64,000 nt of DNA, from assembly GCF_003334385.1 (NCBI RefSeq), contig NZ_QOWN01000017.1; one strand, given 5' to 3'. Of the stretch, positions 14,340 to 24,916 are shown one piece after another. The notes below the pieces were generated by a model. That model did not search any database and was not told where the DNA came from. It saw only the letters and a program-made list of their open reading frames with translations. The stretch is from Escherichia coli. GTDB lineage: Bacteria; Pseudomonadota; Gammaproteobacteria; Enterobacterales; Enterobacteriaceae. How positions within the stretch are numbered: the stretch's first letter is position 1; every line of letters begins with the position of its first letter. The position numbers were made by a program, and so were the translations under genes.

Positions 14340-16031
14340 ATGAAAACGCTGCTGATTATTGACGCTAATCTCGGTCAGGCACGCGCCTATATGGCGAAGA
14401 CCCTGCTGGGCGCGGCGGCGCGAAAAGCAAAACTGGAAATCATCGACAATCCGAACGACGCTGAAATGGCGATTGTTCTCGGTGATTCCATCCCGAACGA
14501 CAGCGCGCTGAACGGTAAAAATGTCTGGCTGGGCGATATTTCCCGGGCAGTTGCGCACCCTGAGCTGTTCCTGAGTGAAGCCAAAGGCCATGCGAAACCT
14601 TACACTGCGCCGGTCGCTGCGACAGCACCAGTTGCCGCCAGCGGTCCGAAACGCGTAGTTGCGGTGACTGCTTGCCCGACTGGCGTAGCACACACCTTTA
14701 TGGCGGCTGAAGCCATTGAAACCGAAGCGAAAAAACGTGGCTGGTGGGTGAAAGTTGAAACCCGTGGTTCTGTTGGCGCGGGTAATGCAATCACTCCCGA
14801 AGAAGTCGCAGCAGCGGATCTGGTGATTGTGGCGGCAGATATCGAAGTGGATCTGGCGAAATTTGCTGGTAAACCGATGTATCGTACCTCTACCGGTCTG
14901 GCGCTGAAGAAAACCGCGCAGGAACTGGATAAAGCGGTTGCTGAAGCAACGCCGTATGAACCGGCGGGCAAAGCTCAAACGGCGACCACTGAAAGTAAGA
15001 AAGAGAGTGCAGGCGCATACCGTCACTTGCTGACGGGCGTTTCTTACATGCTGCCGATGGTCGTTGCAGGTGGTCTGTGTATCGCGCTTTCTTTTGCTTT
15101 TGGTATCGAAGCGTTTAAAGAGCCGGGTACGTTGGCTGCGGCGCTGATGCAGATTGGTGGTGGTTCAGCCTTTGCGCTGATGGTGCCGGTACTGGCAGGT
15201 TATATTGCCTTTTCCATTGCCGATCGTCCGGGCCTCACTCCGGGTCTGATTGGCGGTATGCTGGCGGTCAGCACCGGTTCTGGCTTCATTGGTGGTATTA
15301 TTGCGGGCTTCCTGGCTGGTTACATTGCGAAGTTAATCAGTACGCAATTGAAACTGCCACAGAGTATGGAGGCGCTGAAACCGATCCTGATCATTCCGCT
15401 AATTTCCAGTCTGGTGGTCGGTCTGGCGATGATCTACCTGATCGGTAAACCAGTTGCTGGCATTCTCGAAGGGCTGACTCACTGGCTGCAGACCATGGGG
15501 ACTGCGAATGCGGTTCTGCTGGGGGCGATCCTCGGTGGCATGATGTGTACTGACATGGGCGGTCCGGTAAACAAAGCAGCGTACGCATTCGGTGTGGGTC
15601 TGCTGAGTACTCAAACCTATGGCCCGATGGCGGCGATTATGGCGGCAGGTATGGTGCCACCGCTGGCAATGGGTCTGGCAACAATGGTGGCGCGTCGCAA
15701 ATTCGACAAAGCGCAGCAGGAAGGTGGCAAAGCCGCTCTGGTATTGGGACTGTGCTTCATTTCGGAAGGTGCAATTCCGTTTGCTGCTCGTGATCCGATG
15801 CGTGTGCTGCCGTGCTGTATCGTGGGTGGGGCGCTGACTGGCGCAATCTCAATGGCGATTGGTGCGAAACTGATGGCACCGCACGGTGGTCTGTTTGTTC
15901 TGCTGATCCCTGGCGCTATTACGCCGGTATTGGGTTACCTGGTAGCAATTATTGCCGGTACGCTGGTGGCGGGTTTGGCCTATGCCTTCCTGAAACGTCC
16001 GGAAGTGGACGCAGTAGCGAAAGCAGCGTAA
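14340..16031 (+). CDS. fruA: fructose PTS EIIB'BC component FruA
   Basis: 563 aa ORF; duplicated IIB domain plus membrane IIC domain. Confidence 0.9.
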   Translation: MKTLLIIDANLGQARAYMAKTLLGAAARKAKLEIIDNPNDAEMAIVLGDSIPNDSALNGKNVWLGDISRAVAHPELFLSEAKGHAKPYTAPVAATAPVAASGPKRVVAVTACPTGVAHTFMAAEAIETEAKKRGWWVKVETRGSVGAGNAITPEEVAAADLVIVAADIEVDLAKFAGKPMYRTSTGLALKKTAQELDKAVAEATPYEPAGKAQTATTESKKESAGAYRHLLTGVSYMLPMVVAGGLCIALSFAFGIEAFKEPGTLAAALMQIGGGSAFALMVPVLAGYIAFSIADRPGLTPGLIGGMLAVSTGSGFIGGIIAGFLAGYIAKLISTQLKLPQSMEALKPILIIPLISSLVVGLAMIYLIGKPVAGILEGLTHWLQTMGTANAVLLGAILGGMMCTDMGGPVNKAAYAFGVGLLSTQTYGPMAAIMAAGMVPPLAMGLATMVARRKFDKAQQEGGKAALVLGLCFISEGAIPFAARDPMRVLPCCIVGGALTGAISMAIGAKLMAPHGGLFVLLIPGAITPVLGYLVAIIAGTLVAGLAYAFLKRPEVDAVAKAA

Positions 16032-16187
16032 TAAAAGGTGTGTTACAGGGCAGAAATTTCCTGTCCTGTAACATTTGATGAGCGCAAAGAGAATGACCGG
16101 TTTGTGAATGTAATTTTATGAATTTAAATGGTTTTATCTTTCAGTAGAAACTTCAAACGTTCATCAAACACTCAGGTTATTTCCTCA

Positions 16188-16217
16188 AGGGCAGATTATT
16201 TTCTGCCCTTTTTTATT
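16188..16217 (+). terminator. rho-independent terminator after fruA
   Basis: Hairpin aagggcaga/tctgccctt followed by TTTTTT; a second weaker hairpin at 16042-16072. Confidence 0.55.
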
Positions 16218-16453
16218 GTTCTGTTCTGTGCATCCCGTCACAAATTCCTCGCTTTTGTAATTCAGGCATTTAATCGCATTTTGTGAGCCTGCTCAAATCT
16301 GCCCATTTTGCCTCTCTGGCGGTAATTTACTTTACGTAAAACATGCATACTATGAGCACATGTTTAAATATGAACACATGTTTAAACCGTCTTTGCAGTA
16401 TCTATATTCTTGTGGATTGACAGGGTTGGTAATTTTTTACCAGAGGACGTGCT

Positions 16454-17395
16454 ATGCGCGAAAAGGATTATGTCGTAATTATAGGTTCGGCGAATATTGA
16501 TGTCGCCGGATATTCACATGAATCATTAAATTATGCGGATTCAAATCCAGGTAAAATAAAATTTACGCCTGGTGGAGTAGGGCGCAATATTGCACAAAAC
16601 CTGGCGTTGCTGGGTAACAAAGCCTGGCTACTGAGCGCCGTAGGCAGTGATTTTTATGGTCAATCGCTGCTAACGCAAACCAATCAATCTGGCGTTTATG
16701 TCGATAAATGCCTGATTGTGCCGGGAGAAAATACGTCGAGTTATTTATCATTACTCGATAATACCGGTGAAATGCTGGTTGCTATAAATGACATGAATAT
16801 TAGCAACGCTATTACAGCTGAATATCTCGCACAGCACGGTGAATTTATTCAGAGGGCAAAGGTCATTGTCGCGGACTGTAATATCAGTGAAGAGGCACTG
16901 GCATGGATTCTGGATAATGCCGCCAACGTACCCGTATTTGTCGATCCGGTTTCGGCATGGAAATGTGTCAAAGTGCGCGACCGTCTAAATCAGATCCACA
17001 CTCTCAAGCCAAACCGCCTTGAAGCGGAAACCCTGAGTGGGATTGCGCTGTCAGGGCGTGAAGATGTGGCAAAAGTTGCTGCCTGGTTCCATCAACATGG
17101 CCTGAACCGACTGGTATTGAGCATGGGCGGCGACGGCGTTTATTACAGCGATATCAGCGGTGAAAGTGGCTGGTCTGCGCCGATCAAAACCAATGTTATT
17201 AATGTTACCGGAGCGGGCGATGCCATGATGGCGGGACTTGCTTCGTGTTGGGTAGACGGAATGCCGTTTGCCGAATCTGTTCGTTTCGCACAGGGATGTT
17301 CGTCAATGGCGCTCTCCTGTGAATACACCAATAACCCCGATTTATCGATTGCCAACGTTATATCGTTAGTGGAGAACGCAGAATGTCTGAATTAA
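16454..17395 (+). CDS. psuK: pseudouridine kinase PsuK (PfkB family)
   Basis: 313 aa ORF, ribokinase/PfkB fold motifs (GAGDAMMAG); synteny with psuG, psuT. Confidence 0.85.
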   Translation: MREKDYVVIIGSANIDVAGYSHESLNYADSNPGKIKFTPGGVGRNIAQNLALLGNKAWLLSAVGSDFYGQSLLTQTNQSGVYVDKCLIVPGENTSSYLSLLDNTGEMLVAINDMNISNAITAEYLAQHGEFIQRAKVIVADCNISEEALAWILDNAANVPVFVDPVSAWKCVKVRDRLNQIHTLKPNRLEAETLSGIALSGREDVAKVAAWFHQHGLNRLVLSMGGDGVYYSDISGESGWSAPIKTNVINVTGAGDAMMAGLASCWVDGMPFAESVRFAQGCSSMALSCEYTNNPDLSIANVISLVENAECLN

Positions 17396-18327
17396 AAATT
17401 TCCCCTGAATTATTACAAATTTCCCCGGAAGTGCAGGACGCTTTAAAAAACAAAAAACCGGTTGTGGCGCTGGAATCGACCATTATTTCTCACGGGATGC
17501 CGTTCCCACAAAATGCCCAGACCGCAATTGAAGTTGAAGAAACTATTCGTAAACAGGGCGCTGTACCTGCCACGATCGCCATTATTGGCGGCGTGATGAA
17601 AGTGGGGTTAAGCAAAGAAGAAATTGAATTACTGGGTCGTGAAGGGCATAACGTGACCAAAGTTAGTCGTCGCGATTTACCTTTTGTTGTTGCCGCCGGA
17701 AAAAATGGCGCAACCACTGTGGCTTCAACGATGATTATTGCGGCGCTTGCCGGAATTAAAGTATTTGCCACCGGGGGAATTGGTGGTGTGCATCGCGGGG
17801 CGGAACATACCTTCGATATTTCTGCCGATTTGCAAGAACTGGCAAATACTAATGTCACCGTTGTTTGTGCCGGGGCGAAATCTATTCTCGATTTAGGATT
17901 AACCACTGAGTATTTAGAAACCTTCGGTGTGCCGTTAATTGGCTATCAGACTAAAGCGCTGCCTGCGTTTTTCTGCCGCACCAGCCCGTTTGACGTCAGC
18001 ATTCGTCTCGACAGCGCCAGCGAAATTGCCCGTGCAATGGCGGTGAAATGGCAAAGCGGTCTGAACGGTGGCCTCGTGGTAGCGAACCCGATCCCGGAAC
18101 AGTTTGCTATGCCGGAACACACTATCAATGCGGCGATCGATCAGGCGGTAGCTGAAGCTGAAGCTGAAGCTCAGGGAGTCATTGGTAAAGAAAGTACGCC
18201 ATTCCTGCTGGCGCGCGTTGCTGAACTGACCGGCGGTGACAGCCTGAAATCCAACATCCAGCTGGTGTTCAACAACGCCATTCTGGCGAGCGAAATTGCC
18301 AAAGAATATCAGCGTCTCGCGGGTTAA
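17383..18327 (+). CDS. psuG: pseudouridine-5'-phosphate glycosidase PsuG
   Basis: 314 aa ORF overlapping psuK by 13 nt; indigoidine synthase A-like family; contains (gctgaa)x3 in-frame repeat at 18151-18168. Confidence 0.85.
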   Translation: MSELKISPELLQISPEVQDALKNKKPVVALESTIISHGMPFPQNAQTAIEVEETIRKQGAVPATIAIIGGVMKVGLSKEEIELLGREGHNVTKVSRRDLPFVVAAGKNGATTVASTMIIAALAGIKVFATGGIGGVHRGAEHTFDISADLQELANTNVTVVCAGAKSILDLGLTTEYLETFGVPLIGYQTKALPAFFCRTSPFDVSIRLDSASEIARAMAVKWQSGLNGGLVVANPIPEQFAMPEHTINAAIDQAVAEAEAEAQGVIGKESTPFLLARVAELTGGDSLKSNIQLVFNNAILASEIAKEYQRLAG

Positions 18328-18420
18328 TTTCTGACGGGCAGAAAGCCGTCGCCCGTACTCATCAAGCATACCAAAACCTGGCGCTGACGCCGGGTTTACC
18401 GGCATGAAGGGAAAATCATT

Positions 18421-19671
18421 ATGGATATAATGAGAAGTGTTGTGGGGATGGTGGTGTTACTGGCAATAGCATTTCTGTTGTCAGTGAATAAAAAGAGCAT
18501 CAGTTTGCGCACGGTTGGAGCCGCACTGCTGCTGCAAATCGCTATTGGTGGCATCATGCTCTACTTCCCACCGGGAAAATGGGCAGTAGAACAGGCGGCA
18601 TTAGGCGTTCATAAAGTGATGTCTTACAGTGATGCCGGTAGCGCCTTCATTTTTGGTTCGCTGGTTGGGCCGAAAATGGATGTCCTGTTTGACGGTGCGG
18701 GTTTTATCTTCGCCTTTCGCGTACTTCCGGCGATTATTTTCGTTACTGCGCTCATCAGTCTGCTGTACTACATTGGCGTGATGGGGCTGCTGATTCGCAT
18801 CCTTGGCAGCATTTTCCAGAAAGCCCTCAACATCAGCAAAATCGAATCTTTTGTTGCGGTTACTACTATTTTCCTCGGGCAAAATGAGATCCCGGCGATC
18901 GTTAAACCGTTTATCGATCGCATGAATCGCAACGAGTTGTTTACCGCAATTTGTCGCGGGATGGCGTCCATTGCTGGTTCGATGATGATTGGTTATGCCG
19001 GAATGGGCGTACCAATTGACTACCTGTTAGCGGCATCGCTGATGGCGATCCCTGGCGGGATTTTGTTTGCACGTATTTTTAGCCCGGCAACCGAGCCTTC
19101 GCAGGTCACATTTGAAAATCTGTCGTTCAGCGAAACGCCGCCAAAAAGCTTTATCGAAGCGGCGGCGAGCGGTGCGATGACCGGGCTAAAAATCGCCGCT
19201 GGTGTGGCGACGGTGGTAATGGCGTTTGTCGCAATTATTGCGCTGATCAACGGCATTATCGGCGGAATTGGCGGCTGGTTTGGTTTCGCCAATGCCTCTC
19301 TGGAAAGTATTTTTGGCTATGTGCTGGCACCGCTGGCGTGGATCATGGGTGTGGACTGGAGTGATGCCAATCTTGCGGGTAGCCTGATTGGGCAGAAACT
19401 GGCGATTAACGAATTCGTCGCTTACCTGAGTTTCTCCCCATACCTGCAAACGGGCGGCACGCTGGAAGTGAAAACCATTGCGATTATCTCCTTTGCGCTT
19501 TGTGGTTTTGCTAACTTTGGTTCTATCGGTGTTGTCGTTGGCGCATTTTCGGCTATTTCGCCAAAACGCGCGCCGGAAATCGCCCAGCTTGGTTTACGGG
19601 CGCTGGCAGCAGCAACGCTTTCCAACCTGATGAGTGCGACTATTGCCGGGTTCTTTATTGGTCTGGCGTAA
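18421..19671 (+). CDS. psuT: concentrative nucleoside (CNT family) transporter, PsuT
   Basis: 416 aa polytopic membrane protein, paralog of the ORF at 21611..22861; directly downstream of psuG. Confidence 0.75.
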   Translation: MDIMRSVVGMVVLLAIAFLLSVNKKSISLRTVGAALLLQIAIGGIMLYFPPGKWAVEQAALGVHKVMSYSDAGSAFIFGSLVGPKMDVLFDGAGFIFAFRVLPAIIFVTALISLLYYIGVMGLLIRILGSIFQKALNISKIESFVAVTTIFLGQNEIPAIVKPFIDRMNRNELFTAICRGMASIAGSMMIGYAGMGVPIDYLLAASLMAIPGGILFARIFSPATEPSQVTFENLSFSETPPKSFIEAAASGAMTGLKIAAGVATVVMAFVAIIALINGIIGGIGGWFGFANASLESIFGYVLAPLAWIMGVDWSDANLAGSLIGQKLAINEFVAYLSFSPYLQTGGTLEVKTIAIISFALCGFANFGSIGVVVGAFSAISPKRAPEIAQLGLRALAAATLSNLMSATIAGFFIGLA

Positions 19672-19680
19672 TGCTCGATT

Positions 19681-19722
19681 TGTAGACCGGATAAAACGTA
19701 TTAAGCGTTGCATCCGGCAATC
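19681..19722. repeat. REP (repetitive extragenic palindrome) element
   Basis: tgtagaccggataaaacgtattaagcgttgcatccggcaa, typical REP/PU palindromic motif. Confidence 0.6.
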
Positions 19723-19741
19723 GCGCTATTGAAAATAATTT

Positions 19742-20401
19742 TTACTGCATCATCCCGGAGAATTTATTCTCCGGGTCCATCTCCAGCGCCAGTCCTGACA
19801 ACTGCTTTCTGTTTTTAATGAGATACCCTTTCTTGCTTTTAATTAATAAACCGTCGTGAATGAACTGCGCGAGAACATATAAAAGATGTCGATAAGAAAC
19901 GCCTAAATACTCTGCCGCTTGCGTATGCTTTTCGTGATAAAGATCACCTTCCTGCGAGAGTAATATAAATGCTGCCAGGCGATTCACTAACGGAAATGAT
20001 TGATTCTGAGTTAAAGAAACAATATTACGATAATTTTTATGACTTAAGGTGACGCAGAGTTTTCGTAAAAATAGCGTGTCGTTTAATAACAGCGGACGGT
20101 AATGTTTCATAGGGAGCGCAAGGCACCAACACTCTTCAATAGCCTGCACCGCACGCGGTTCATGGTCTTTATCGATTAACTCAATCTCGCCAATAAAACA
20201 GGGGGCGGCAAAGAAATCGATCAGCGACACGCGACCATTAGCTAGCGTGGCGTAAAGCCTGGCGCGGCCTCGCGTCAGGTAAAACAGCCAGGACGGCTGT
20301 TGCCCTTCCTGCACAATGTAGTCACGCGCTAAAAAATGAAACAGCCGCGTATCGGCTGAAACATCCGTTAAAAAGCAATCCTTAAACGCGGATTCACTCA
20401 T
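19742..20401 (-). CDS. yeiL: CRP/FNR-family transcriptional regulator YeiL
   Basis: Track ORF 19742..20440; probable start MSESAFKD (20401), 219 aa; cNMP-binding-like N-terminus and C-terminal HTH. Confidence 0.75.
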
Positions 20402-20569
20402 CAATTGCTGCTTAAGATCATTATTGTGGATTTCTTTCACGATGTTTATCCGCTATGAGATTTCTCATATTTAGCATACGTACGCTGTTGTTAAGATTCA
20501 ATCATCGGCCCGGTCGAATTTTCTTTGCTGTAGAAAAAATAACGCAACTGGAAACAGAGGAAATAAACA

Positions 20570-21511
20570 ATGGAAAAGAGAAAAATTATTCTGGATTGTG
20601 AGCCGGGTCATGATGATGCTATTGCTATAATGATGGCGGCGAAACATCCGGCAATAGATTTATTAGGCATCACTATTGTAGCGGGTAATCAGACGCTTGA
20701 TAAAACATTAATTAATGGCCTGAATGTTTGCCAGAAACTGGAGATTAATGTTCCGGTTTATGCGGGGATGCCGCAGCCCATTATGCGTCAACAAATCGTT
20801 GCCGATAATATTCACGGTGAAACCGGACTGGATGGCCCGGTATTCGAGCCGCTGACCCGCCAGGCAGAAAGCACTCATGCGGTGAAATATATCATTGATA
20901 CCCTGATGGCAAGCGATGGCGATATCACTCTGGTGCCGGTTGGTCCGCTTTCAAATATCGCGGTGGCAATGCGTATGCAACCCGCGATCCTGCCCAAAAT
21001 CCGTGAAATTGTGCTAATGGGCGGCGCTTACGGTACAGGCAACTTCACGCCATCTGCCGAGTTCAACATCTTTGCCGACCCGGAAGCCGCACGCGTAGTG
21101 TTCACCTCCGGCGTTCCATTAGTGATGATGGGCCTCGATCTCACCAACCAGACCGTTTGCACCCCGGACGTGATTGCTCGGATGGAAAGGGCAGGCGGCC
21201 CCGCCGGAGAGCTGTTCAGCGACATCATGAACTTCACTCTCAAAACGCAGTTCGAAAACTACGGCCTTGCTGGCGGCCCGGTGCACGACGCCACCTGCAT
21301 CGGTTATCTGATTAACCCTGATGGCATTAAAACCCAGGAGATGTACGTCGAAGTGGACGTCAACAGTGGCCCTTGCTATGGGCGTACCGTCTGCGACGAG
21401 CTGGGCGTTCTTGGCAAGCCCGCCAATACCAAAGTCGGCATCACTATTGATACAGACTGGTTCTGGGGATTAGTCGAAGAGTGCGTGCGCGGCTACATCA
21501 AAACCCATTAA
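20570..21511 (+). CDS. rihB: pyrimidine-specific ribonucleoside hydrolase RihB
   Basis: 313 aa ORF with inosine-uridine nucleoside hydrolase N-terminal DxDxxxDD motif ([11 protein letters not shown]). Confidence 0.85.
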
Positions 21512-21610
21512 GTGTTGATAACAAGCCGGGCCGGTATCGCAAGATGCAGGCCTGGCTATTTCTGATGGGCAGAAAGCCGTCGCCCAATATGACATGAAGA
21601 GATAATCACT

Positions 21611-22861
21611 ATGGATGTCATGAGAAGTGTTCTGGGAATGGTGGTATTGCTGACGATTGCGTTTTTACTGTCAGTAAACAAGAAGAAGATCAGCCTGCGT
21701 ACCGTTGGCGCGGCGTTAGTGTTACAGGTCGTGATTGGCGGCATTATGCTTTGGTTACCGCTAGGGCGTTGGGTCGCTGAAAAAGTCGCTTTTGGCGTGC
21801 ATAAAGTGATGGCGTACAGCGACGCGGGTAGCGCATTTATCTTCGGTTCTCTGGTCGGACCGAAAATGGATACCTTATTTGATGGTGCAGGATTTATCTT
21901 TGGTTTCAGGGTGTTACCGGCAATTATCTTCGTCACCGCGCTGGTGAGTATTCTCTACTACATCGGTGTGATGGGGATTTTAATTCGAATTCTCGGCGGT
22001 ATCTTCCAGAAAGCATTAAATATCAGCAAGATCGAGTCATTCGTCGCGGTCACCACCATTTTCCTCGGGCAAAACGAAATTCCGGCAATCGTCAAACCCT
22101 TTATCGATCGTCTGAATCGCAATGAATTATTTACAGCGATTTGTAGTGGCATGGCCTCGATTGCTGGTTCGACAATGATTGGTTACGCCGCACTGGGCGT
22201 GCCTGTGGAATATCTGCTGGCGGCATCATTAATGGCGATCCCTGGCGGGATCTTGTTTGCCCGCCTGTTAAGCCCGGCAACGGAATCTTCGCAGGTTTCC
22301 TTTAATAACCTCTCTTTCACCGAAACACCGCCAAAAAGCATTATTGAAGCCGCTGCGACAGGGGCAATGACCGGGCTGAAAATCGCCGCAGGTGTGGCAA
22401 CAGTGGTGATGGCATTTGTTGCAATAATTGCGTTGATTAACGGTATTATCGGCGGCGTTGGTGGCTGGTTTGGTTTTGAACATGCCTCGCTGGAGTCCAT
22501 TTTAGGTTACCTGCTGGCTCCACTGGCGTGGGTGATGGGTGTGGACTGGAGTGATGCGAATCTTGCCGGGAGTTTGATTGGACAGAAACTGGCAATAAAT
22601 GAATTTGTCGCTTATCTCAATTTCTCACCCTATCTGCAAACGGCTGGCACTCTCGATGCTAAAACTGTGGCGATTATTTCCTTCGCGTTGTGCGGTTTCG
22701 CTAACTTTGGTTCTATCGGGGTGGTGGTGGGGGCGTTTTCTGCGGTTGCGCCACACCGTGCGCCGGAAATCGCCCAGCTTGGTTTACGGGCGCTGGCGGC
22801 GGCGACGCTTTCCAACTTGATGAGTGCGACCATTGCCGGGTTCTTTATTGGTTTAGCTTGA
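21611..22861 (+). CDS. nupX: concentrative nucleoside (CNT family) transporter NupX
   Basis: 416 aa, highly similar along its length to the psuT product at 18421..19671; synteny next to yeiI. Confidence 0.75.
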   Translation: MDVMRSVLGMVVLLTIAFLLSVNKKKISLRTVGAALVLQVVIGGIMLWLPLGRWVAEKVAFGVHKVMAYSDAGSAFIFGSLVGPKMDTLFDGAGFIFGFRVLPAIIFVTALVSILYYIGVMGILIRILGGIFQKALNISKIESFVAVTTIFLGQNEIPAIVKPFIDRLNRNELFTAICSGMASIAGSTMIGYAALGVPVEYLLAASLMAIPGGILFARLLSPATESSQVSFNNLSFTETPPKSIIEAAATGAMTGLKIAAGVATVVMAFVAIIALINGIIGGVGGWFGFEHASLESILGYLLAPLAWVMGVDWSDANLAGSLIGQKLAINEFVAYLNFSPYLQTAGTLDAKTVAIISFALCGFANFGSIGVVVGAFSAVAPHRAPEIAQLGLRALAAATLSNLMSATIAGFFIGLA

Positions 22862-22869
22862 GTGTCATT

Positions 22870-22965
22870 GCCTGATGCGCAAGCTTATCAGGCCTACATT
22901 TACTTGCTGAAATTGCCTGATTTGTAGGCCGGATAAGACGCGTTAAGCGTCGCATCCGGCAACAT
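22870..22965. repeat. REP element pair (BIME-like)
   Basis: gcctgatgcgcaagcttatcaggcctaca and tgtaggccggataagacgcgttaagcgtcgcatccggcaa in opposite orientation. Confidence 0.6.
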
Positions 22966-22967
22966 TG

Positions 22968-24056
22968 TTACACCATTGGCACTAATGAAAGCGCGTTATC
23001 GGCAGACAGGGTAGGGTTGTTTAAGCTGCCGCTGGCGCGCGAAATTGCCGCGCAGGCTACCGCAAAACGGGCGCTGTCGCGGAAACTGTATCCTTCAAGA
23101 AAGCTATATACCAGGCCCGCCATAAAACCATCGTCAGCACCAAAACTGTCTACTGTCGTATGCGCTGGCGCGGTCAGCAAAAATTGTTCTCCATCCTTTT
23201 CGCTGCAATAAACTGACTCATCGGGCAAATAAACAAACAGTTGCTGAACACCTTGCTGATGCAATGCATTCACTGCGGTATTACGGTCAGCATCGCTGGT
23301 GATCGCCTGTCCCCATAAAATTTCCAGCTCCGGTAAAGTGGGTTTCAGGGTGTGAATATGCGCCAGCCAGTGTTTGATTTTGCCCGCTTTGAATTCTGAA
23401 ACGGTATCGACAAACACCGGGATTTCATCAGCGAGGGTAAAGACCCATTCCAGCGCCTCGGCTGTCAGGTTGCAATCAGCCAGTACCACGCCCGCATGAC
23501 GAAGTAAATCGCGCGACCCGTTCAGTAGTTGCGGTGTCAACTGTTCCAGCAGATGGGTATCGTTAATCGCCAGCACGGTTTGATCGTCTCGATTGGCAAT
23601 TGCCAGATACGTCGATGTGCTTTGACCATGCAAACGAACGCAGCCGGAGACATTCACGCCGGCACGGCGCGTTTCTTCCAGGAGCATTTCGCCATAAAAG
23701 TCATCGCCAATCACTGAAAGCAAATGGACGTCACGGCCTAACAGCGCCAGATTGTGGGCGATGTTGCGTCCCACGCCGCCCGCTGAGCAATGAATTGTAC
23801 CGGGATGAGAAGCCGATTGCGGGTAACGGATATCCGCCATCCCGCGAATATCCATATTGATTGTCCCCACCACTACGCAGTATTCCTGCTCGGTGAGAAT
23901 GTAACCTTTGCCTTTAATCCGGCCTTTGCGCATTAAATCCATAATATGCGCCGCAACGCGCGAACGGCTGATTTGCAGCATGTCCGCAATTTCGTTCTGC
24001 TGAATCAGCGGGTTACGCCGTAAAATTGCAAGGATCTCCTTTTCCCGGTTATTCAT
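22968..24056 (-). CDS. yeiI: PfkB-family sugar/nucleoside kinase with N-terminal HTH domain, YeiI
   Basis: 362 aa ORF; N-terminal winged-helix-like segment followed by ribokinase-like domain; paralogous to psuK. Confidence 0.8.
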   Translation of the reverse strand: MNNREKEILAILRRNPLIQQNEIADMLQISRSRVAAHIMDLMRKGRIKGKGYILTEQEYCVVVGTINMDIRGMADIRYPQSASHPGTIHCSAGGVGRNIAHNLALLGRDVHLLSVIGDDFYGEMLLEETRRAGVNVSGCVRLHGQSTSTYLAIANRDDQTVLAINDTHLLEQLTPQLLNGSRDLLRHAGVVLADCNLTAEALEWVFTLADEIPVFVDTVSEFKAGKIKHWLAHIHTLKPTLPELEILWGQAITSDADRNTAVNALHQQGVQQLFVYLPDESVYCSEKDGEQFLLTAPAHTTVDSFGADDGFMAGLVYSFLEGYSFRDSARFAVACAAISRASGSLNNPTLSADNALSLVPMV

Positions 24057-24058
24057 CT

Positions 24059-24916
24059 TCAGGCTACCGCTTTTTCAGTTTGTTGCGCTTTCAGCCAGGC
24101 GATCTCTTCTGCCCAGATATCCGGGTTGATGGTTTCGAGGATCAGCGGAATGCCGTCGAAACGGTCGTCCTGCATGATCCAGCGGAACGCATCATGACCG
24201 ATATTGCCTTCACCGAGGCTATGATGGCGGTCAACGCGGCTGCCAAAGGTGCTTTTCGCATCGTTAAGGTGCATCCCGCGCAGATACTTAAAGCCGACAG
24301 TACGGGCAAAATCCGCGAATGTTTTCTCGCATTCGGCTGGAGTACGCAAATCATACCCGGCAGCGAAAGCATGGCAGGTATCAATGCAGACGCCGACGCG
24401 GGATTTATCTTCCACGCCGTCGATAATCGCCGCGAGATGTTCGAATTTAAACCCTAAGTTACTGCCCTGACCGGCGGTGTTTTCTATCACCGCTGTCACA
24501 CCTTGAGTTTTATCCAGCGCAATGTTGATGGATTCGGCAATACGCGCAAGGCAATCCTCTTCTGAAATCTGCATCAGATGGCTGCCAGGGTGGAAGTTGA
24601 GCAAAGAAAGCCCCAGCTGTTCGCAACGCTGCATTTCATCTATAAAGGCATCGCGCGATTTTTCCAGAGCTTCAGTGACCGGATGTCCGAGGTTAATCAG
24701 ATAACTGTCGTGGGGAAGAATTTGCGCCGATGTGTAGTGATATTTTTCACAGGCGGCTTTGAATTCATCGATGGTTTGCGTCGTGAGCGGTGCGGCACGC
24801 CACTGACGTTGGTTTTTGGTGAACAAGGCAAACGCGGTTGCGTCGATTTCGGCGGCGCGAATTGCGGCATTTGCCAGACCGCCAGCAGCACTAACGTGCG
24901 CTCCAATGTATTTCAT
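24059..24916 (-). CDS. nfo: endonuclease IV (AP endonuclease) Nfo
   Basis: 285 aa ORF starting [16 protein letters not shown]-barrel AP endonuclease 2 family. Confidence 0.9.

Follow-up and report, generated by a model that had tools for sequence, protein, structure and literature searches.

A tandem repeat upstream of the pseudouridine operon psuKGT of Escherichia coli was found to hold two 12 bp palindromic boxes, which are retained at fixed positions in the psuK promoters of related bacteria. That the psuK repeat is a set of twin protein-binding operators can be stated with high confidence. It is fairly likely, judging from the genes that accompany the boxes, that these are operators for the protein YeiI, through which a psuK promoter dependent on CRP would be kept repressed until the presence of pseudouridine is sensed. 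The DNA that was analysed, referred to here as the window, is a 64 kb stretch of an E. coli genome, and the locus concerned is its fruBKA-psuKGT region.

The tandem repeat, the psuK promoter and the paired boxes

The 12-mer cacatgtttaaa is present as exact copies at 16357-16368 and 16375-16386. An earlier note on this DNA had described this 12 bp repeat and its 18 bp period, both of which were confirmed by an exact match search, although the repeat is longer than had been claimed. In full, it is an 18 bp unit present twice, head-to-tail, from 16351 to 16386, and is reported by TRF as 18 bp x 2.0 with 94% matches and a score of 65. Being head-to-tail and of high identity, the 18 bp units constitute a tandem direct repeat. 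The psuK ATG, at 16454, follows the end of the repeat by 67 bp, in keeping with the roughly 70 bp given in the note. The intergenic region, between the end of fruA at 16031 and the start of psuK, is 422 bp, identical to that of MG1655.

16351..16368, + strand, repeat unit 1 TATGAGCACATGTTTAAA, from TRF and repeat search
16369..16386, + strand, repeat unit 2 TATGAACACATGTTTAAA, 17/18 identical to unit 1, from TRF and repeat search

The psuK repeat is non-random and far beyond chance. It is the sole tandem duplication in the 64 kb window with a unit of more than 12 nt and one mismatch at most; shuffled windows contain a mean of 0.12 such duplications, counting any unit of 12 to 30 nt. An exact search of the 64 kb found no copy of the 12-mer beyond these two. 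When two mismatches were allowed, for either the 12-mer or the box, only chance-level matches were found in the window, all of them in coding sequence (735 in a permease gene, 25284, and 26378). There is no other intergenic box in the 64 kb window, and no local regulon of boxes beyond psuK was seen there.

A set of 5426 complete E. coli genomes was searched by megablast, and 4228 of these have a match to the K-12-type psuK intergenic region. The repeat is in two copies in approximately 4195 of them, in one copy in 3, UC4224 being one of these, and in three copies in 8, such as GB089 and 09-00049. Exactly two copies are therefore kept in about 99.7% of the K-12-type genomes, and the genomes with one or three copies indicate occasional slippage of the repeat. 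The idea that psuK is absent from the other 22% of E. coli was rejected: strain S5 has a deeply divergent, E. albertii-like haplotype that is missed by megablast, in which psuK and yeiI are approximately 81% identical to those of K-12. In the S5 haplotype the boxes are kept 18 bp apart, and the units agree with each other at only some 12 of their 18 positions.

Only in the K-12-type Escherichia haplotype are the two units nearly identical; in other genera unit 2 reads ATGAACATGTGCTCTAAT. Since the units diverge outside of the K-12-type haplotype and the boxes are kept, the conserved feature is the pair of palindromes, rather than the direct repeat. The near-perfect identity of the units probably arose through slippage or conversion between the two boxes. 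The note had proposed that absence of the repeat from orthologous promoters would speak against a regulatory role; the near-identical 18 bp repeat is indeed absent outside of the K-12-type haplotype, but the boxes are present in those promoters.

The regions upstream of psuK were aligned for 12 enterobacterial promoters (Escherichia clades, E. albertii, Buttiauxella, Citrobacter, and a Raoultella MAG). The alignment contains invariant blocks at fixed spacing, corresponding to a CRP-like site, a -35, a -10, and the two boxes. These features of the E. coli locus and the operon they precede are as follows.

16282..16297, no strand assigned, CRP-like site TGTGAGCCTGCTCAAA (TGTGA-N6-TCAAA); TTGTGA-N6-TTCAnATCT is invariant, at fixed spacing, in the 12 promoters
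16326..16331, + strand, -35 hexamer TTTACT of psuKp; TTTAC is invariant in the 12 promoters
16348..16353, + strand, -10 hexamer TACTAT, with a 16 nt spacer; TAyyAT is at a fixed distance from the -35 in all genera aligned
16354..16365, no strand assigned, box 1 GAGCACATGTTT, directly after the -10, at about -7 to +5 of the predicted start
16372..16383, no strand assigned, box 2 GAACACATGTTT, 18 bp from box 1, at about +12 to +23 of the predicted start
16454..19671, + strand, operon of psuK (16454-17395), psuG (17383-18327) and psuT (18421-19671), from ORFs, the MG1655 annotation and NCBIfam

The product of psuK matches the NCBIfam pseudouridine kinase equivalog. From the position of the -10, transcription is predicted to start near 16360. 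The psuK promoter is weak (TTTACT, 16 nt, TACTAT) and, as judged from its sequence, is probably dependent on CRP-cAMP at the predicted site, the centre of which is about 70-71 bp upstream of the predicted start, a class I position. The same footprint is found behind fruA (E. coli, Buttiauxella) and behind a LysR gene (Citrobacter, Raoultella), which shows that it belongs to psuK. A consensus promoter scan missed the conserved promoter, because this scores 8/12, and reported a downstream TTTAAA/TATATT pair that scores 9/12. The acatgcat sequence, described in the note as a palindrome, is in the spacer between the -35 and the -10 and is not conserved in other genera; the 8-mer itself is not palindromic, but it does contain ATGCAT.

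The assignment of the promoter is supported by a mutation that improves its -35. An A>C change in the psuK/fruA intergenic region, at position 2257444 of MG1655 (version 2), arose independently in many mice and was called adaptive, and has also been found in long-term stationary-phase cultures (PMC7518454, PMC9509342, PMC6731689, PMC7858067). Altered psuK expression and faster growth were reported with it (PMC9509342). With a genome-version offset of 1978, verified using srlR L25S from the same mutation tables, the change maps to 16328, a T on this strand, which is the third T of TTTACT, generating TTGACT. The breseq annotation from the stationary-phase study, 'intergenic (-126/+297)', independently leads to the same base. 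The psuK/fruA A>C is thus an up-mutation in the -35 of the conserved promoter, like other -35 up-mutations of experimental evolution, in this case changing TTTACT to TTGACT 16 nt from TACTAT. Published accounts describe it as intergenic or in the promoter region only; the link to the -35 and to the operators is drawn here. Among the mutations listed, the A>C at -126 is the sole recurrent adaptive allele at the psuK locus. The TTGACT allele is in five complete genomes, four of which are the laboratory K-12 derivatives S17-1, ST18, ER1821R, and ER2683.

Each 18 bp unit of the repeat holds one 12 bp palindromic box. Box 1 reads rAACAyrTGTTy in 12/12 of the aligned enterobacterial promoters, and both boxes fit rAACAyrTGyTy, 18 bp apart, in all 12. 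Across species the centre of the box varies, being CA, TG, CG, or TA, while AACA and TGTT are fixed. The consensus for the family of boxes is cAAACA-NN-TGTTTg; compared to AAACA-N2-TGTTT, box 1 of E. coli has two mismatches and box 2 has one, within the limit of two to three that was set for the family.

All 5-mer palindromes with spacers of 0 to 8 were enumerated in the 200 bp upstream of psu operons from 13 genera. The top-ranked palindrome is AAACA-N2-TGTTT, found in 12 of the 13 genera, the best in 200 shuffled sets reaching 5 or fewer, with the caveat that the enterobacterial promoters in the comparison are non-independent samples. The CRP consensus TGTGA-N6-TCACA, with one mismatch or fewer, is tied for second in these 200 bp regions (8/13 genera).

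Two boxes are found 18 to 19 bp apart in Yersinia, Serratia, Pasteurella, Enterobacter, Shewanella, and Aliivibrio, and in Yersinia, Serratia, Pasteurella, Shewanella, and Aliivibrio the pair was located between the -10 and the start codon. Examples of the pairs, with the distance from box 1 to box 2, are given here.

Yersinia: box 1 AGACACATGTTT, +18, box 2 AAACAAGTGTCC
Pasteurella: box 1 CAAACAAAAGTTGA, +18, box 2 TAAACAGGTGTTGA
Shewanella: box 1 TAAACAAAAGTTTG, +19, box 2 GCAAACATATGTTTGC
Enterobacter: box 1 CAAACAGATGTTTG, +18, box 2 CAAACATAAGCTCT

Boxes are also present upstream of the psu operon in Burkholderiaceae. The proximal site of Xenorhabdus is arranged differently from that of the other genera. 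Single, fully palindromic boxes exist far upstream as well, such as AACCAAACACTTGTTTGGTT in Yersinia; in Yersinia, Serratia, Xenorhabdus, and Salmonella these distal palindromes are perfect over 14 to 20 bp with a 2 nt centre.

YeiI and the HTH_24-PfkB proteins

The gene proposed to encode the regulator, yeiI, lies beyond psuT on the opposite strand.

22968..24056, - strand, yeiI, proposed regulator, from Pfam, BLASTP, an AlphaFold model and conserved neighbourhood

It is 3 bp downstream of nfo and is present in 5423 of the 5426 complete E. coli genomes. Pfam identifies a winged helix, HTH_24, in residues 1-48 of YeiI (E=2e-10). The PfkB domain that follows is 39% identical to PsuK over 307 residues by BLASTP (E=6e-76). 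In the AlphaFold model (pLDDT 87), three helices with a wing are followed by a flexible linker and then by the kinase body.

The gene yeiI lies directly after psuT, and converges on psuKGT, in E. albertii, Citrobacter, Buttiauxella, Raoultella, Enterobacter, and one Salmonella island; in E. coli, psuT and yeiI are separated by an insertion of yeiL-rihB-nupX. The HTH_24-PfkB architecture is widespread among relatives, and in seven distant taxa (Yersinia, Serratia, Xenorhabdus, Pasteurella, Shewanella, Aliivibrio, and a Burkholderiaceae MAG) the operon has the layout [fusion]-psuG(-psuT), the fusion gene coming first. In the 13 kb loci examined, including those from Yersinia, Serratia, Pasteurella, and Shewanella, this first gene is the only kinase gene of the psu operon. 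The boxes of these fusion-type operons are at -33 and -15 from the ATG. A gene for an HTH_24-PfkB protein is in or next to the psu operon in all 13 of the genera used for the motif count, and no other regulator was seen consistently near the psu operons in the loci examined. No DNA-binding domain other than the fused winged helix is constantly found with the boxes. YeiI is therefore likely to be the protein that binds them.

Alignment of the proteins separates the family by its kinase motifs. The first-in-operon fusions keep DSNPG and GAGD, as does PsuK. The recognition helix of HTH_24-PfkB proteins also varies, reading RSRVAAHI or RSGVAGHI. YeiI and its orthologues, from genomes with a separate PsuK, have ASHPG-like and GADD or GADE motifs instead, so YeiI lacks the GAGD and DSNPG pair by which PfkB kinases are recognized. 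On this basis, YeiI is probably now a non-catalytic sensor. No box of its own is present upstream of E. coli yeiI, behind nfo.

YeiI was called 'uncharacterized' or 'function unknown' in papers from 2022 and 2025, was given as a hypothetical transcription factor and nothing further in a 2018 listing, and is missing from a 2016 census of E. coli transcription factors. In the literature searched, neither a solved structure nor a described function was found for the HTH_24-PfkB architecture. The note's view that the regulator of psuK is ill-defined is borne out: the open literature that was searched yielded no assigned psuK regulator, no 'PsuR', and no pseudouridine regulon, RegulonDB, EcoCyc, and RegPrecise being outside the scope of this search. 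Nor was any publication on YeiI binding to DNA or on an effect of YeiI upon psuK found in the open literature, and a paper on regulon reconstruction in Shewanella makes no mention of the pseudouridine system.

The combination of a winged helix and a kinase-like sensor has a parallel in the ROK-family repressors (NagC, Mlc, XylR), which have an N-terminal winged helix and a sugar-kinase-like sensor domain. As proposed for YeiI, these use a kinase fold as the ligand sensor of the repressor and bind palindromic operators, frequently a pair, in promoters of the catabolic or transport genes concerned, and true kinases and non-catalytic repressors coexist as paralogues. YeiI differs from the ROK family in that its sensor has a PfkB/ribokinase fold, rather than a ROK/ASKHA fold, and in the box, AAACA-N2-TGTTT. 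The psu fusions that have all of the kinase motifs would, from their sequences, both phosphorylate pseudouridine and autoregulate, as in the trigger enzymes BirA, NadR, and PutA, although the enzyme class and the DNA-binding domain are different. By comparison with these trigger enzymes, the two roles appear to be split in E. coli between PsuK and YeiI.

Other readings of the boxes

The note took the repeat to be a binding site of the CRP/FNR or response-regulator type and suggested YeiL or CytR as the protein that binds it. That it is a conserved cis element of the psuK promoter holds, but the type of site does not, the element being a pair of 5-N2-5 palindromes with a period of 18 to 19 bp. 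It is unlikely that the boxes are bound by YeiL, which belongs to the CRP/FNR family, by CytR, or by a response regulator reading direct repeats. YeiL has location in its favour, yeiL being 70 bp downstream of psuT in the window, and homologues of YeiL are found in several Enterobacterales, so that distribution by itself does not decide against YeiL. In addition, PrfA, a CRP/FNR member, recognizes TTAACA-N2-TGTTAA, which resembles the box. However, both boxes are kept in E. albertii, Citrobacter, Buttiauxella, Raoultella, and Enterobacter, where yeiL is absent from the psu locus. In Hafnia and Enterococcus, homologues of YeiL are the divergent partners of an operon for a rihB-like hydrolase and a transporter, which makes YeiL the likely regulator of rihB-nupX. 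A slight further indication against YeiL is that the box-bearing Pasteurella, Shewanella, Aliivibrio, and Burkholderiaceae are not among the best 120 YeiL relatives. The geometry also differs, since CRP sites are TGTGA-N6-TCACA (5-N6-5) and FNR sites are TTGAT-N4-ATCAA (5-N4-5), and the units of the repeat do not have the form of either.

Sites of the OmpR/PhoB type are direct repeats with a period of approximately 10 to 11 bp, or 21 to 22 bp. The boxes have a period of 18 to 19 bp and stay palindromic while the flanks of the units diverge between genera, which does not fit a response regulator. Promoters for nucleoside catabolism are often under the control of CRP and CytR, and to this extent CytR is a reasonable candidate at psuK. 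The CytR operator, however, consists of TGCAA-type repeats lying between a pair of CRP sites that are about 52 bp apart. Upstream of psuK there is only one CRP-like site, there are no conserved TGCAA repeats, and conservation is also lacking for the ATGCAT of the spacer (ACACGCTTAC in Citrobacter).

By-eye comparison of the units with consensus sequences for CRP, FNR, LexA, ArgR, ArcA, the marbox, the LacI family, KdgR, GlpR, FabR, and NrdR suggested no fit in spacing and conservation. Control of psuK by the SOS system was also considered. The LexA box is CTGT-N8-ACAG, and none was seen by eye in the 422 bp intergenic region. In proteomics data, the levels of PsuG and PsuK are strongly lowered in recA mutants exposed to ciprofloxacin; many CRP-regulon proteins are in the same lists, thus the effect of recA on PsuG and PsuK may be indirect.

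It is quite unlikely that the boxes are activator sites for the promoter reported by the consensus scan (TTTAAA at 16381-16386, 16 nt, TATATT at 16403-16408). The score of this downstream promoter and the lack of repressor knock-outs among the listed adaptive mutations would both fit with an activator, for which the boxes would be at approximately -61 to -32. Its hexamers, however, are not conserved beyond the K-12-type haplotype, whereas the upstream promoter is invariant and lies at a constant distance from the CRP-like site, and it is the upstream -35 that is improved by the adaptive SNP. Such a promoter would also not fit into the 15 to 33 bp that separate the boxes from the ATG in the fusion-type operons.

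The boxes could instead act in RNA, giving the psuK mRNA a 5'-terminal stem-loop that controls its stability or translation and is formed between box 1 and box 2 or, in E. coli, between 16362-16372 and 16377-16387. This is very unlikely. Every genus allows a hairpin of -8 to -15 kcal/mol to be drawn, but this is because two similar palindromes are mutually complementary. The E. coli leader does fold better than shuffled sequences (z = -2.9), and box 2 would be transcribed from a start near 16360. Against this, the two boxes have a covariation score of 0.100, lower than in 500 out of 500 shuffles (mean 0.178), and the left half of box 1 is conserved although it is upstream of the predicted start. 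The single perfect palindromes far upstream, with their 2 nt centres, cannot form RNA hairpins. A search of 15950-16550 against Rfam gave only a chance-level match to a human lncRNA, with 13.9 bits against a gathering score of 48.

It is highly improbable that the repeat arose neutrally, by slippage, and lacks any function of its own. Such a duplication would account for the restriction of the 17/18 identity to the K-12-type Escherichia haplotype and for the variation in copy number (1, 2, or 3) among isolates, but not for the almost universal retention of two copies. In addition, E. albertii, the divergent E. coli haplotype, Citrobacter, Buttiauxella, Raoultella, and Enterobacter have boxes in the same alignment columns and with the same spacing, and pairs occur in distant families, so both boxes pre-date the homogenization of the units.

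Proposed regulation of psuKGT and its evolution

With YeiI as the protein that binds the boxes, the following scheme is proposed for E. coli. CRP-cAMP, bound at about -70, would activate the weak psuK promoter. Dimers of YeiI on both boxes, covering about -7 to +23, would block initiation or escape by RNA polymerase. Pseudouridine, or its 5'-phosphate, would bind to the kinase-like domain of YeiI and cause its release from the DNA. As a result, psuKGT would be expressed only in the presence of pseudouridine and the absence of glucose. That YeiI acts as a repressor, with pseudouridine as its effector, is judged to be somewhat better than an even proposition. The direction of control, repression, is suggested by the fusion-type operons, in which the boxes are so close to the ATG that there is no room for a promoter downstream of them.

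This arrangement resembles that of deoP2, cdd, udp, and nupG, which are controlled by CytR and DeoR, in having a CRP-type site upstream and operators at the core promoter. As at those promoters, expression of psuKGT would be expected to need both the absence of glucose and the presence of the nucleoside. The psuK promoter differs from them in its one CRP-like site at about -70, where they have tandem CRP sites on either side of CytR, in having no CytR (TGCAA) or DeoR (TGTTAGAA) motifs, and in having its operators downstream of the -10.

In evolution experiments, de-repression has usually come about through the knock-out of a repressor, as for frlR, dgoR, srlR, and glpR. No mutations in yeiI or in the boxes are among those listed in the gut and stationary-phase evolution tables. 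Since only the -35 SNP recurs at psuK, a model of simple repression has to suppose that expression is limited by the strength of the promoter and not by the repressor. It may be that the limiting step is the strength of the promoter or its dependence on CRP, or that YeiI has functions beyond repression.

It is possible to envisage how the E. coli system came about. In the many Gammaproteobacteria, and the one Burkholderiaceae MAG, in which the fusion is first in the operon, it would act as both the enzyme and an autorepressor. The ancestor may have been such a bifunctional kinase-repressor, which was duplicated in the group containing Escherichia, Citrobacter, and Enterobacter. After the duplication, PsuK would have become the enzyme, losing the winged helix, and YeiI the regulator, losing the catalytic constraint. 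The split in the motifs, with GAGD and DSNPG kept on one side and degenerate in YeiI, fits with duplication and subfunctionalization. There is perhaps an even chance that the whole of this wider account is correct, in which HTH_24-PfkB proteins are an undescribed family of ribokinase-fold sensors, ancestrally kinase and autorepressor in one, with PsuK and YeiI a split of the two, the E. coli repeat an operator pair, and its 1-, 2-, and 3-copy alleles tuning repression.

The psuK element is of a familiar kind, an operator pair, and the family of the regulator is apparently undescribed. Two gaps in the annotation of K-12 are joined here, psuKGT being without an assigned regulator and yeiI being an orphan gene. 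The prediction is precise and cheap to test, having operator coordinates, a promoter, and a candidate effector. A pseudouridine-responsive switch of this sort would be a candidate for use in engineered strains that produce pseudouridine. The operator pair sits on a promoter of demonstrated adaptive importance, and a highly reproducible mutation from the gut and from stationary phase gains a mechanistic reading, as a -35 up-mutation of a CRP-dependent promoter that is proposed to be repressed. This has a bearing on the scavenging by commensals of pseudouridine from RNA turnover. If the account is true, a ribokinase-fold class would join the regulators derived from enzymes, and PsuK and YeiI would be a clean example of the subfunctionalization of a trigger enzyme.

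Features around psuK and elsewhere in the window

Local sequence features include:

16041-16073, fruA terminator
16187-16210, second strong terminator-like hairpin with a T-run
16426-16443, conserved hairpin or palindrome (TTGGTAA-TTTT-TTACCAG) adjoining the psuK Shine-Dalgarno sequence
18148, tandem duplication of a 12-nt unit with 1 mismatch, inside psuG
49435, tandem duplication of a 12-nt unit with 1 mismatch

The fruA terminator and the second terminator-like hairpin are separated by approximately 115 nt. No Rfam family matches this segment (16074-16215), which may represent a small transcript or a remnant. Apparent REP-type repeats take its place in the divergent haplotype of E. coli strain S5 (L025).

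The palindrome at 16426-16443 has the counterpart TGGCAA...TTGCCA in other genera. Pairing holds in 92% of cells, and one pair is compensatory (C-G in 7 sequences, U-A in 4). The palindrome could be a stem for translational control or a second protein site.

Variation at the psu locus

Both psuK and yeiI occur within E. coli as two deeply divergent haplotypes with approximately 81% DNA identity (16454-24056; loci L024 and L025). Among complete E. coli genomes, the yeiI alleles are present in 3363 versus 2060. The haplotypes are mosaic, as in FORC_029, which has the divergent yeiI together with a K-12-type psuK, and the promoter of the divergent haplotype is similar to that of E. albertii.

In some isolates the psu locus has been struck by IS1 insertions and deletions (strain A30 locus L023 and genome matches H80-H83). 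Strain A30 lacks psuK together with its promoter, as well as part of psuG. IS1 is present in the psuK/psuG region of several duck and human isolates, among them 23AR1101, where the psuK annotation is split into two pieces.

Regulation of the neighbouring genes

Between psuT and yeiI, E. coli carries an inserted module, yeiL-rihB-nupX (19742-22900). In Hafnia alvei and Enterococcus malodoratus (L026 and L027), YeiL homologues are again encoded divergently from genes for a rihB-like nucleoside hydrolase and a nucleoside transporter, therefore YeiL is probably the regulator of rihB-nupX. The candidate psuK regulator gene yeiI follows nfo, which encodes the SoxS-regulated endonuclease IV, after a gap of 3 bp (22968-24916). 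This order is kept in E. albertii, Citrobacter, Buttiauxella, Raoultella, and Enterobacter, thus yeiI may share a transcript with a gene for oxidative-stress repair.

Expression of psuKGT

When recA mutants of several clinical isolates are exposed to ciprofloxacin, the most reduced proteins include PsuG and PsuK, with log2 fold changes down to -6 (PMC11039860). They are listed together with SOS proteins and many members of the CRP regulon. By eye, no LexA box was seen in the psuK promoter (422-bp intergenic region). The difference may stem from pseudouridine that is released by RNA turnover and acts as an inducer, or from the growth state.

The -35 up allele TTGACT at 16328, already known from evolution experiments, is fixed in one pigeon isolate, fEC.1, and in the laboratory strains S17-1, ST18, ER1821R, and ER2683, therefore psuKGT is probably over-expressed in some common laboratory strains.
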